In this document: piece by piece, positions 2,062 through 10,952 of the stretch | Numbering within the stretch: the first letter of the stretch is position 1 | Layout: the number at the start of each line of letters is the position of its first letter | Source of the DNA: an uncultured delta proteobacterium | GTDB lineage: Bacteria; Myxococcota_A; Polyangia; Haliangiales; Haliangiaceae | DNA: 16,595 nucleotides | Reading direction: 5' to 3' | Assembly (NCBI GenBank): GCA_963848295.1 | Contig: CAWKDB010000008.1 | Span: forward strand, 1-16,595 | The notes under the pieces: generated by a model | The model's input: the letters and a program-made list of their open reading frames with translations, nothing else | What the model was told of the DNA's origin: nothing | Databases searched by the model: none | Translations under genes and position numbers: made by a program

Positions 2062-2412
2062 CTAGTACTCCGCCAGAGAGATTTTGATCGGTTGCCAACG
2101 CAGCGACCGAGCGGTCGCCCACGATCGCTTCGAGCGGCGCGGCGATCGCGCTAGCGCGCGAGTTGGCGTGTGGACCGCGTGGCCCAGCGTCTCCTCGCGC
2201 GCCTGCCCGCGCTCTCCGCGGGCTTTCCCTCGCGGCGCGCCGCGCTCAGCCACCCGCGCGCAGGCGTTGGCGCGGCGGTGGGCGCCGCTCCGTACATCGG
2301 ACGACGGCTCACCCGGTTTCGCTCGCGATCTCGCCAACGCGCGGCGCGGCCAGCGAGGCGGTCCCCTTCAACCCGCGAGGGCTCGAAGCGCTCGCGCGCT
2401 CGCGCAGTTTAG
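2062..2412. mobile_element. candidate MITE related to the 9390-9908 element
   Basis: CTAG-TACTCCGCCAGAGAGATTTTGATCGGTTG matches the right end of the 9390-9908 element. A degenerate inverted end (8/10) lies at 2399-2408, followed by TTAG. The interior folds into a long hairpin. Confidence 0.5.
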
Positions 2413-4785: not shown

Positions 4786-4960
4786 CAAGGCCAGCGGAGC
4801 ACGATCAGTCTCACGCCAGCGCGCGCTGTTGCGTTCGTTACGTTCATCGCCGCAAACGTGAATGCGCGTTCGCCGTGATCGTGATTGCTCATGACGGCAT
4901 CGGTGGAAACAGCCGCGGTGATTCGACGAACCCGTCGAAACGTCAGCGTTCGCGATCTCG

Positions 4961-5125
4961 CCAGCGCGCGCGACAGGCGGAGCTGCGCAGGGTCCCGTGC
5001 GCGTAGCTTCCAAGCCGATCATCATGCGTCGGCGTACCAAAACGCGTTGCACCGCCCGTCGTCCCGCGCCGCCCTTCGCGCGCCGCGCGCGGGACCCTGT
5101 GACAGCGCAGCCAGCGCGCGCGTTC
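4961..5125 (-). repeat. structured intergenic repeat / candidate ncRNA, copy 2
   Basis: Inverted copy of 47-215; own stem CAGGGTCCC/GGGACCCTG (4988-4996/5091-5099); lies just downstream of the sigma factor stop. Confidence 0.85.
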
Positions 5126-8220: not shown

Positions 8221-9384
8221 GTGATTGATCCCTATCGCGATGCTGCGACGCCACATTGCCCGGCGTGCGGCGCGCCACTGCGTTCGTTTGCAGGACGCCT
8301 CTGCTGCGACGCGTGCAGCGGTATGCTCGTCACCGAGCCCGATCTGACGAGCGCGATCACCGAGCACTCGGACATGCCGCCGACGCTCGGGTTCATCGAG
8401 CCGGTGCCGCCGCAGCGCGAGTCGGCGCGCCGGTGCCCACGATGTGATCGCGCGATGATCGCGTGCCGACTCGAGGCGACGTTCGAGGGCGAGCGCGTCG
8501 TGGTCGCCGTCGAGCTCGACCGCTGCGCTGCGCACGGTATGTGGTTCGACGCGAACGAGCTCGCCGCCGCGCTTGAAGCGACCGCGCGCGTCGAGCCCCC
8601 GCGGCGCAAACGGCCCGGCTTCCTGCGCCAACTGTTCCACGGCCGCGATCCCGGCTGGGACGAAGGCGTTAACATCGAGGACGCAATTCCGCTACCACGA
8701 CAACCGCCGGCCGCCCGCGCACAAACTCTGCCCCCGGCCGCCGACCCCGACGCGGCGCTCGCGCGTTTCGCCGAGGAGGGCCAACGACGCACGCAAGCCG
8801 CGCACGACGCGCGCACTCGGCGTTACGAATGGGTGAGGCTCGAGCGCTTGTGCGACGCGATGAAGCTGATGCCGGTTGCTCGCGTCGCTGGCGACGTCGC
8901 GGTTCCAACCACCGACGAGTTTCCGCTCCCCGAAGAGCTCGTCCTCGGACAGGAAGACTCCACGACCGAGCCGTCGCAGGAGCTCGTCGCGTCGGCCGCG
9001 CGAAAGGCCGCCGCGGAACGAGCGTGGCTCGCATCGCTGGCATTCGCCGTCGACCACTACTTCGCCGTGCTCGCCTTGGCGCCGCGCGCGATCTTTCGCC
9101 TTACGTTCACGATTCACCTCGCCGACTCGGAGCGAGCGCCCAGCCTCGACGTGCTACGCGACATCGTCCATGTCCATGACGTTAACGCGGACGTCGGGTT
9201 GCGCGACGACGGCATGATCGCGATCGAGTGCGACGAAGACGCAGTCTCCTTACCCGGTTATTTCCCGTACACGGTCCAGAACATCGCGCCCTACATTCAC
9301 GGGCTCGTGGACAAGGTCCTCGTACCGCTGCACGCGAGCCATCCGATCGCGCGTGTGGCGATTGCGCGCGTCGACAACTACTAA
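8221..9384 (+). CDS. zinc-ribbon (zf-TFIIB-like) domain protein with unknown C-terminal domain
   Basis: CPACGAPL...CDACSG and CPRCDRAM...DRCAAHGMWFDANEL; 387 aa; TAGTGT lies 6 nt before the GTG. Confidence 0.8.
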   Translation: MIDPYRDAATPHCPACGAPLRSFAGRLCCDACSGMLVTEPDLTSAITEHSDMPPTLGFIEPVPPQRESARRCPRCDRAMIACRLEATFEGERVVVAVELDRCAAHGMWFDANELAAALEATARVEPPRRKRPGFLRQLFHGRDPGWDEGVNIEDAIPLPRQPPAARAQTLPPAADPDAALARFAEEGQRRTQAAHDARTRRYEWVRLERLCDAMKLMPVARVAGDVAVPTTDEFPLPEELVLGQEDSTTEPSQELVASAARKAAAERAWLASLAFAVDHYFAVLALAPRAIFRLTFTIHLADSERAPSLDVLRDIVHVHDVNADVGLRDDGMIAIECDEDAVSLPGYFPYTVQNIAPYIHGLVDKVLVPLHASHPIARVAIARVDNY

Positions 9385-9428
9385 ATTAGTACTTCACCAC
9401 TGTGAAGATGACTGGTTCGATCTTCTTT

Positions 9429-9455
9429 CGAGCCCGAGCCCGAGCCCGAGCCCGA
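9429..9455 (+). repeat. (CGAGCC)4.5 tandem hexamer array
   Basis: Read directly; 9431-9455 is the exact reverse complement of 9846-9870. Confidence 0.95.
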
Positions 9456-9497
9456 AATCGTAAGCAACCCCCATCACGACGGGCCGATACACCCGAC

Positions 9498-9872
9498 GTG
9501 AACGAGTTCGAACACGAGCGTCTTGACGTCTATCAGGCCGCGATTCAGTTCCTTGTCCTTGCCGATCGAATTGCTGGCAATTTGCCGCGTGGAAACGGTT
9601 ATCTCGCCGACCAGCTGAGGAGAGCGGCCAGTTCGATCTCGTTCAACATCGCCGAGGGAGCCGGCGAGTTCGCCGCCGCTGACAAAGCTCGCTTTTATCG
9701 AATGGCTCGCCGTTCGGCGACGGAGTCAGCGGCGATTCTCGACGCATGTCGGGCGCTCTCGCTCTCGAGCGACGAAGGTCCGCACGCCGGACGCGCTGTT
9801 CTGTTGCGCATCGTGGCGATGCTCACCGCGATGGTCGTCAAGAGATCGGGCTCGGGCTCGGGCTCGGGCTGA
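9498..9872 (+). CDS. four helix bundle protein (23S rRNA IVS protein / TIGR02436-like)
   Basis: FEHERLDVYQ...LADQLRRAASSISFNIAEG...KARFYRMARRSATE. Probable start is GTG 9498 (124 aa); the longer ORF from 9402 only translates the repeat. Confidence 0.9.
   Translation: MNEFEHERLDVYQAAIQFLVLADRIAGNLPRGNGYLADQLRRAASSISFNIAEGAGEFAAADKARFYRMARRSATESAAILDACRALSLSSDEGPHAGRAVLLRIVAMLTAMVVKRSGSGSGSG
9846..9870 (+). repeat. (TCGGGC)4 tandem hexamer array
   Basis: Encodes the C-terminal SGSGSGSG up to the TGA; inverted partner of 9431-9455. Confidence 0.95.
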
Positions 9873-9908
9873 GCGCGTTTCAACCGATCAAATCCTTGTG
9901 GCGAAGTA

Positions 9909-10952
9909 TTAGTGCGCGTGGCCGTGGTGGATGTCCGGCGCGTGGTCGTGTGCGTGCTCGACCTCGGTGTGGTGATGCGGATGCGCGTGCTCGCCGATGA
10001 CCGCCGGCTCGTGGACATGATCGTGGTGGCCGTCGTCGTGGCGATGGACATGATCGTGATCGATCGCGTGATGGTGGTGCGGGTGAACGTGGCGCTCGGT
10101 CGCGTGCAACCACACCCCGGTTGCGAACAACGCGGCGGCGCCGAGCGTCCAGCCATCGAGTGCGCGATCGCCGAGCGCGATCGCGACCGCCGCACCGACG
10201 AACGGGGCGAGCGCGAACACCGAGCCCGTGCGGCCTGCGCCGATCCGCCGTTGTGCGAGCAGGTACAGCCGTAGCGATAAGCCGTAGCCGACCGCGCCGC
10301 ACGCCACGACCGCGAGCGCCGGCCCGATCGGCGGTAGCGCCTCGCCGACGATCGCCGCGGCGGTCAACGAGAGCGTCGCACCGAGCGCGCCCTTGCCCGC
10401 GATCACGGCGAGCGGATCGCGCTCTGCGAGCGGCCGGGTCAGCGTGTTGTCGAGTGCCCAGCCGAGCGTCGCACCGGCGACCGCGATCGCGCCGACCGCG
10501 CTCCACTCGCCACCGCGCGCCGCGGCGAGCACGAGCAACGCACCGCCGGCGGTCATCGCGGCGACTGCGAGCGCGACGCGGCCGCCGATCGGCTCGCGAA
10601 ACGCGACGCGCGCGAGCGCGACCGTGAACACCGCTTCCAGGTTGAGCAGCAGCGAGCCGATCGTCGCGCCCGAGCGCGCGAGCCCCCACGCGAGCAACGC
10701 CGGGGCGACCGCACCGCCGACCACGGCGATCGCGACGAGCCGGCCGAGGTCGCCGCGAACGAGCGGTCCGCCGCTACGGCCGAACGCACGCAACGCGATC
10801 GCGGACGCGGCTGCGCCGGCATAGAGCAGCGCTGCGGTCACGATCGGGCCGACCCAGCGCTGGGCCCACGCGACGATCGGCGTCGTCACGCCGAACGCGA
10901 TCGCCGCCGCGGCTGCGAGCGTCACACCACGAGTGATCGCGCGCGGGGTCAC
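9909..10952 (-). CDS. EamA/DMT family transporter with His-rich C-terminal tail
   Basis: About ten hydrophobic helices, SLLLNLEAVFT, WALDNTLTR, IGAGRTGSVFALAPFVGA and an HxHxH tail; GTGA overlap with the upstream gene. Confidence 0.9.
   Translation of the reverse strand: MTPRAITRGVTLAAAAAIAFGVTTPIVAWAQRWVGPIVTAALLYAGAAASAIALRAFGRSGGPLVRGDLGRLVAIAVVGGAVAPALLAWGLARSGATIGSLLLNLEAVFTVALARVAFREPIGGRVALAVAAMTAGGALLVLAAARGGEWSAVGAIAVAGATLGWALDNTLTRPLAERDPLAVIAGKGALGATLSLTAAAIVGEALPPIGPALAVVACGAVGYGLSLRLYLLAQRRIGAGRTGSVFALAPFVGAAVAIALGDRALDGWTLGAAALFATGVWLHATERHVHPHHHHAIDHDHVHRHDDGHHDHVHEPAVIGEHAHPHHHTEVEHAHDHAPDIHHGHAH

Follow-up and report, generated by a model that had tools for sequence, protein, structure and literature searches.

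Genes of the PF05635 family, which encode four-helix-bundle proteins, are abundant and patchily distributed and, to our knowledge, have no known function. One of them lies in a short cassette between two convergent genes of an uncultured delta proteobacterium of the Haliangiaceae, and it raises the question of what kind of element this is, what moves it and why it carries such a gene. The stretch of DNA that was analysed, called the window below, comprises 16,595 nucleotides and is the whole of contig C8 (CAWKDB010000008.1) of an assembly (GCA_963848295.1, here G000) that is 85% complete. An earlier note, made from the sequence of the window without database searches, had proposed a transposase-less mini-element, mobilised in trans and typical in its target site of the IS701 family. 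The features of the locus are collected in Table 1. Two unpublished genomes (G010 and G057) enter only the tallies and the screened sets of loci, and no specific claim is made on them alone.

Table 1. Features of the cassette and its surroundings (positions in the window)
Feature	Position	Strand	Basis
Solitary relic of the 5' end of the IS630 family, 7.3 kb from the cassette	2063..2158	+	similarity to L130
Zinc-ribbon protein gene (TFIIB-type), left flank, outside the element	8221..9384	+	PF13453; missing from the C10 counterpart
TA target duplication, left copy (T-TA-G target)	9387..9388		sequence; family end-pair test
Left terminal inverted repeat, IS630 type; nearer to the end downstream of the transposase	9389..9420	+	31-nt family pattern matched exactly
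Left (GAGCCC)n arm, 5' strand of the inner stem	9428..9455	+	complementary pair; predicted folds
Promoter-like motif (GCAAC-N14-GCCGATA), 8 nt upstream of the start codon	9464..9489	+	conservation; spacing
Gene for the four-helix-bundle protein (PF05635/TIGR02436; 124 aa), its final codons overlapping the right arm	9498..9872	+	profile scores; 2GSC
Right (GGGCTC)n arm	9846..9870	+	complementary pair
Right terminal inverted repeat; nearer to the end upstream of the transposase	9878..9909	-	alignment
EamA transporter gene, His-rich tail, right flank, outside the element	9909..10952	-	PF00892
TA duplication, right copy; together with base 9909 it makes up the minus-strand EamA stop codon	9910..9911		sequence

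The setting of the cassette

Three blocks of contig C8 are 86-92% identical to a stretch of contig C10 (G000:C10:3590178-3595286), in which a kinase gene is followed directly by the EamA gene, the zinc-ribbon gene and the cassette both being missing there; the similarity of the two EamA copies begins at 9911. From this comparison, C8 may derive from a sister lineage that was binned with G000. Contig C7 is 98.6% identical to the same C10 stretch, and the three contigs taken together suggest that a mixing of strains or species in the assembly is likely. The window also contains an inverted repeat of about 165 bp (53-214 versus 4959-5121, 80% identical), of which there are more copies on C2 and C10.

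Ends and target duplication

The cassette, between its two convergent neighbours, is 521 bp long (9389-9909). TTAG stands at both borders (9386-9389 and 9909-9912), and this had been taken as a 4-bp target duplication around a 519-bp element with 11-bp inverted ends. The 4-mers and the inverted ends, with 10 of 11 positions matching, are present in the sequence, and the weaker complementarity noticed further inward is confirmed; the true length of the inverted ends is, however, about 32 bp. The duplication itself has to be read differently. Across 36 distinct end pairs, taken from loci picked by a pattern that requires YTAR at one end and including one pair (the first at L160) that is probably spurious, the inner base is always G at the left end and C at the right end (36/36) and TA is present on both sides in 33, while the flanking 4-mers are equal in 24 pairs and unequal in 12; in one genome, G102, they are equal in five of 14. 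The target duplication is thus TA, within a preferred CTAG, and it is this that sets the bounds of the element at 9389 and 9909. Taken by itself, the window locus is ambiguous, a 4-bp TTAG duplication being an equally good fit there, because its terminal base has changed: the 4-mers match only since the last base on the right is T instead of the family's C. The sequence predicted for the empty site is unaffected by the correction. A CTAG preference of IS630 was reportedly described by Tenzen and Ohtsubo in 1991. That IS630-family elements duplicate TA is stated in a report on ISY100 (PMC2170065).

The two ends differ in what they resemble. The left one shares 23 of 33 positions with the 3' end of a complete element (L130) and 20 with its 5' end; compared with the ends of the elements in G016 or G018 it shows no preference for one side. 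The right one, in which the alignment reveals a 1-nt deletion besides the terminal C-to-T change, is identical at 25-27 of 32 positions to the 5' ends of three complete IS630 elements; for the element in G018 the figures are 27 of 32 (one gap) for the 5' end and 22 for the 3' end. The terminal change is silent, in that the EamA gene stops with TAA instead of TAG. All four complete copies of the cassette have a long frame ending at the insertion site, although 1427 of the 3070 CTAG sites in G000 pass the same crude test, so that no enrichment for stop codons is apparent. Elsewhere, a MITE (L226, G102:C36:33060-33410) lies inside the apparent CTAA end of another IS630 family; that end is re-formed when the MITE is taken out together with one TA, but not when a 4-bp duplication is assumed.

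IS630 elements with the same ends

The ends of about 32 bp were found again in 41 of the 147 genomes searched from the order (the reversed 31-nt pattern, as control, gives 0), and a shorter end pattern is far above control in G063 and G102. A longer pattern identifies 57 loci in GTDB contigs, where the named records are mostly titled Kofleriaceae. Six of these loci are elements of 1.4-1.5 kb with the end at both sides or nearly so, and five of the six have transposase-like ORFs; L130 scores 238 bits on NF033545 (cut-off 100), which makes it IS630. Within the genus, a homologue is found at E ≤ 1e-30 in 16 of 91 genomes, and complete IS630 elements flanked by CTAG occur in the congeneric genomes G016, G018 and G099 (L241, 248 bits on NF033545). 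Because the contig set and the genus set may overlap, they were kept unsummed. The search for a transposase gene with the same ends, which had been suggested as a check, was successful: complete 1.5-kb IS630 elements are bounded by them.

No matching transposase was found in G000, which has five near-identical IS630 copies with other ends and three further matches whose ends are unclear, nor in five other cassette-bearing genomes, which are incomplete assemblies. The relic in the window is identical at 28 of 32 positions to the L130 end (the next-best sites in G000 reach 22) and 75% identical to L130 over 104 nt; relics of the 5' end are also present in G083 and G104. After the relic comes a repeat of about 120 bp (2134-2250), of which G000 contains more than 10 other copies. 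The autonomous elements also carry a divergent ORF for a LexA-type HTH protein (L130:141-563; likewise L241, L242, L243, L248, L150 and L154), the last residues of which are encoded by the terminal repeat and the stop codon of which is made by the YTA of the target. The four-helix-bundle ORF in G007 ends in the same way.

Mobility and dispersal

Complete homologous cassettes are found in unrelated flanks in the window, in G083 (frameshifted), in G007, where the copy is on two overlapping contigs, and at L300 (intact), the single match of a metagenome scan. Single ends are present in G104, G093, G076, G089 and G008, and frameshifted or truncated copies in G083, G089, G008 and G104. For the G083 copy, a sister of the window cassette, there is an exact empty site: in G015:C63 one CTAG joins the two genes that flank the cassette in G083, with 175 identities, 45 mismatches and 15 gaps across the junction. 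This site is compatible with either reading of the duplication; what it shows is presence and absence. MITEs that have ends of the cassette type and lack the ORF account for 41 end matches in G063 and 63 in G102. The element is real and mobile, and it belongs to IS630 and not to IS701. The proposal of a non-autonomous cassette mobilised in trans is supported, indirectly, by the same ends in unrelated flanks, the exact empty site of the sister copy and the transposase-bearing elements that share the ends.

There is no second copy of the cassette in G000, where the 31-nt end pattern has two matches, both in the window. Nor was an empty zinc-ribbon/EamA junction seen: contigs of three sequencing runs, with coverage too patchy to be informative, contain no joint across the element, and the listed matches to the zinc-ribbon protein in 138 genomes include no full-length orthologue but the N-terminal part only. 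A plasmid collection gave no match. The window copy is probably old and, with its damaged right end, may be immobile. In G008, the gene that borders the G083 cassette has at its 3' end, where the contig stops (L414, G008:C29:1-165), a different run of hexamers (GTAGTC-type), possibly another module at the same spot.

The four-helix-bundle gene and its arms

The likely start codon is GTG at 9498. The product scores 63.5 bits on PF05635 (cut-off 33.8) and 62.2 on TIGR02436 (cut-off 24), and it matches PDB entry 2GSC with E 5e-10; in this sequence search 2GSC was the only one of the two relevant structures to be recovered, Avd not being found. Comparison with five homologues, the frameshifted G089 rows being set aside, gives dN/dS values of 0.057-0.153, which indicate purifying selection and are rough because dS is mostly near saturation.

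The gene had been described as the only cargo. It is indeed the single PF05635/TIGR02436 ORF, but the inverted hexamer arms and the promoter-like motif had been missed. The inner parts of the arms (9431-9455 and 9846-9870) form 25 bp of complete complementarity that enclose the ORF. Fold prediction gives a two-tier stem for the strand (z = -6.1, with 0 of 100 shuffles as stable), and a stable fold for the L300 copy as well (z = -7.5), and the ORF would accordingly lie within a stable terminal stem. Covariation of the arms, based on three sequences only, is unfavourable (term +5.4), with no compensatory change. A better sign of a stem comes from distant homologues, in which the hexamer unit differs between clades yet stays inverted.

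The promoter-like motif

In the loose form GCAAC-N14-GYCGATA the motif precedes 22 of the 24 homologue rows examined (out of 33), mostly 8 nt before the start codon, and it was not seen in four upstream regions of the family called C below. In G000 the motif is spacing-specific: there are 24 sites with a spacer of 14, whereas each of 13 other spacers gives 0-5, and in 19 of the 24 a start codon follows 7-9 nt downstream; GCAAC is correctly placed in 17 of the 36 GYCGATA-N8/9-ATG sites. The strict pattern is found in 23 of 41 genomes, with one control match; a genome has between 0 and 42 matches, and there are none in G007 despite its cassette.

The genes behind the motif in G000 include a comF-type gene, comEC (one mismatch), a gene for a contractile-injection tube protein (spacer 13 or 15; C10:3244407), two AAA ATPase genes, a gene for a lamin-tail protein and two Y1-transposase-like genes (Pfam matches below cut-off), and seven of 19 have no Pfam match. 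The motif also stands before comF-like genes in G004 and G017 and a comEC-like gene in G018, all named by resemblance. The motif was not found at dprA, radC, comM or comEA, which tells against a full competence regulon. Two gene clusters (G000:C10:556937-570245 and C10:3497406-3502704) have each gene behind the motif, several of them divergent, and include AAA ATPases with a WHD domain.

Scans for sigma-70 promoters and terminators gave none. The promoter of sigma-28 (FliA), as found at flagellin, combines a TAAA -35 box with a GCCGATA -10 box. TAAA-N12..18-GCCGATA has no site in G000, and the 75-kb stretch that holds flagellin contains no site of the motif. FliA/WhiG was rejected as the reader of the motif, since matches are found in all 41 genomes, their presence does not track the motif counts and flagellin lacks the motif. 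The individual FliA-type genes of G000 (C10:3367235, 3436647 and 3339182), one a FliA in a flagellar cluster and two orphan FliA-like paralogues, are candidate readers. The distance from motif to start codon points to a promoter for leaderless mRNA, and the gene is probably transcribed in this form by an alternative sigma factor. The motif would be a first handle on when a four-helix-bundle gene of this kind is expressed, and it marks a small regulon in uncultured soil myxobacteria; none has been described in the literature searched. Neither the motif nor cassettes of this kind were the subject of any paper found by that search, which left most subscription papers outside.

One gene family on several kinds of ends

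At least four end types serve this one cargo family in one genus, and some members have none. Arms and motif without recognisable ends are seen in close homologues from G011, G074 and G077; in G064 and G096 the ends are of a different type, with what looks like a TAA duplication, and a fourth type is seen in nine of the 10 G018 regions examined. In G000, a multi-copy cassette family has 10-bp duplications centred on CTAG, and its ends match those of IS4 elements from the genus (L273, 258 bits); the IS4 partner was found in congeners and not in G000. That mobility explains the scattered paralogues, as the earlier note supposed, is true only in part: there are several end types, some close homologues are end-less, and the other paralogues in G000 are members of two different element families. 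That a single genus uses several end types for this cargo suggests that it is the module which persists. In a tree of 22 rows, of which two family-C rows are the same sequence, the six IS630-ended rows fall on one side of a weak branch (60/47), and the tree gives no order for module and ends.

The IS4-ended cassettes of G000 are about 540 bp long, with arms of the GTTGAC/CTTGAC type and copies that are 91-99% identical (among them C2:270988-271526, C2:797062-797603 and C10:3467455-3467986), and there are internally deleted forms of 70-80 bp (C10:2116766 and C10:4408269). At C10:4056361, C10:2647168 and C2:436771, such a cassette is fused in mid-gene to reverse transcriptase-like sequence, presumably of the group II intron kind from its motif, which suggests rearrangement or misassembly. 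A GGGCTC arm beside an IS4-type end in G007 (L294, G007:C78:1-150) suggests that the same arm type is also used with IS4 ends there. In the third family of G000 (family C; C2:1461100-1463400 and about eight similar loci), the four-helix-bundle genes stand in divergent pairs that lie amid long satellites of hexamers.

Origin and maintenance of the cassette

It is very probable that the cassette is a 521-bp non-autonomous IS630 derivative, of the mobile-insertion-cassette type, in which a pre-existing module lies inside IS630 ends. The module, consisting of the inverted hexamer arms, the promoter-like motif and the four-helix-bundle gene, would have replaced the interior of an IS630 element of which the ends of about 32 bp were kept, and an IS630 transposase acting in trans would cut and paste the cassette. 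There is a precedent in ISY100, for which cut-and-paste transposition with 30-bp ends has been shown in vitro (PMC2170065). Insertion at CTAG or TTAG would often hit stop codons and leave them intact, and for this reason such insertions would be tolerated.

The assignment that has to be replaced is that to IS701, with a 4-bp YTAR duplication. TTAG does stand on both sides in the window, the IS701-type elements of the genus sit in YTAR (one, L117, has TTAG on both sides), and the end pattern ---YACT-Y--YR, published for IS701 (PMC2266710 Table 1), can be read into the cassette if its start is moved 3 nt outward; a cassette started there has no flanking 4-bp repeat, however. A DDE_5 search of 91 genomes yielded 21 IS701-type loci, none with a cassette end (the end pairs inspected in 17 of them being of other types or not clear), and every transposase found between cassette-type ends is IS630-like. 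IS701 has a duplication of exactly 4 bp (PMC2266710), and the inequality of the 4-mers in 12 of the 36 family pairs speaks against that, so that we regard an IS701 derivative as very improbable. Somewhat less improbable, but still a poor prospect, is that the module moved by its own route (for example by hairpin and protein, or by a RAYT-like Y1 enzyme) into a resident IS630 MITE, the ends being incidental. The end-less homologues with arms and motif, the abundance of MITEs with cassette-type ends and the two Y1-transposase-like genes that share the motif would all be in keeping with this, the last with Pfam scores below cut-off; the layout and orientation of ends and arms are, however, identical in the window, G083, G007, L300 and G104, which fits one capture followed by joint spread, and at the G015 empty site the ends and the module are both missing.

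Least probable of all is a fixed, host-domesticated hairpin, a terminator or processing site between convergent genes, that is immobile in every lineage. Its single copy, the damaged right end, the purifying selection on the ORF and the stable predicted RNA fold could be so explained, and for the window copy today this description may hold. As an account of the family it meets the absence of flanks common to the copies, the frameshifts or truncations in several of them and the empty site for the sister copy. The IS630-derived cassette with a captured module remains the preferred explanation.

Why the gene is kept can be answered more tentatively. The protein is predicted to be a nucleic-acid-binding pentamer like 2GSC, and the predicted stem might be processed by an enzyme of the RNase III type. 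The protein is dispensable for transposition, since ORF-less MITEs with the same ends are abundant (41-63 end matches per genome). The leading suggestion, though one we would not press, is that this 2GSC-like protein is maintained because selection acts on the persistence or spread of the module itself. Benefit to the host is a less likely reason, and a role elsewhere, with mere hitch-hiking here, is rather less likely again. More speculative still is an unlikely scheme in which a selfish module that captures whatever transposon ends are available is wired to an alternative-sigma programme with the comEC, comF, Y1-transposase-like and contractile-injection genes; an Avd-like protein would then be made while foreign single-stranded nucleic acid is being handled, and would aid capture or spread.

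Comparison with known systems

The cassette shares with IS630/Tc1/mariner elements (IS630, ISY100) the TA duplication and a partner with an IS630 transposase (NF033545, DDE_3), and its inverted ends are of similar length to the 24 bp of ISY100 (PMC2170065). Unlike IS630 elements it has no transposase and carries a passenger gene, and its autonomous partner adds the LexA-type HTH ORF. In having two IS-derived inverted repeats around a coding sequence and no transposase it is like the mobile insertion cassettes, of which MIC231 is an example (PMC6199540, PMC2266710). The MIC231 cassettes are moved in trans, as the present one would be; they have IS231/IS4 ends, whereas the ends here are of IS630 and the cargo is a self-contained hairpin module (PMC6199540, PMC2266710). 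At 521 bp the cassette is also below the range of about 700 bp to 3 kb given for such cassettes (PMC6199540), and it is best called MIC-like.

Two systems with related proteins were rejected as identities for the cassette. The 23S rRNA intervening sequences of Coxiella and Leptospira, with their S23p ORF, place the same protein family inside a long stem of terminal complementary arms and are of similar size (428-444 nt; PMC4990558). In contrast to these, the cassette lies outside rRNA (the window has no Rfam match) and has arms of hexamer repeats, transposon ends and a promoter-like motif of its own. PF05635 proteins resemble Avd, the accessory protein of diversity-generating retroelements (2GSC versus 4DWL; PMC10053308); unlike these retroelements, the window has no reverse transcriptase among the 13 ORFs scanned. 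A further source for comparison is a preprint (bioRxiv 10.1101/2024.02.27.582315).

What appears to be new is the IS630 partner, the four end types in one genus and the promoter-like motif with its other target genes. Horizontal spread of the rRNA-embedded form of PF05635 has been proposed without a vehicle (PMC4990558). For the gene described here a vehicle has been identified, with named IS630 partners, a TA/CTAG target and an exact empty site, and this makes its mobility testable.
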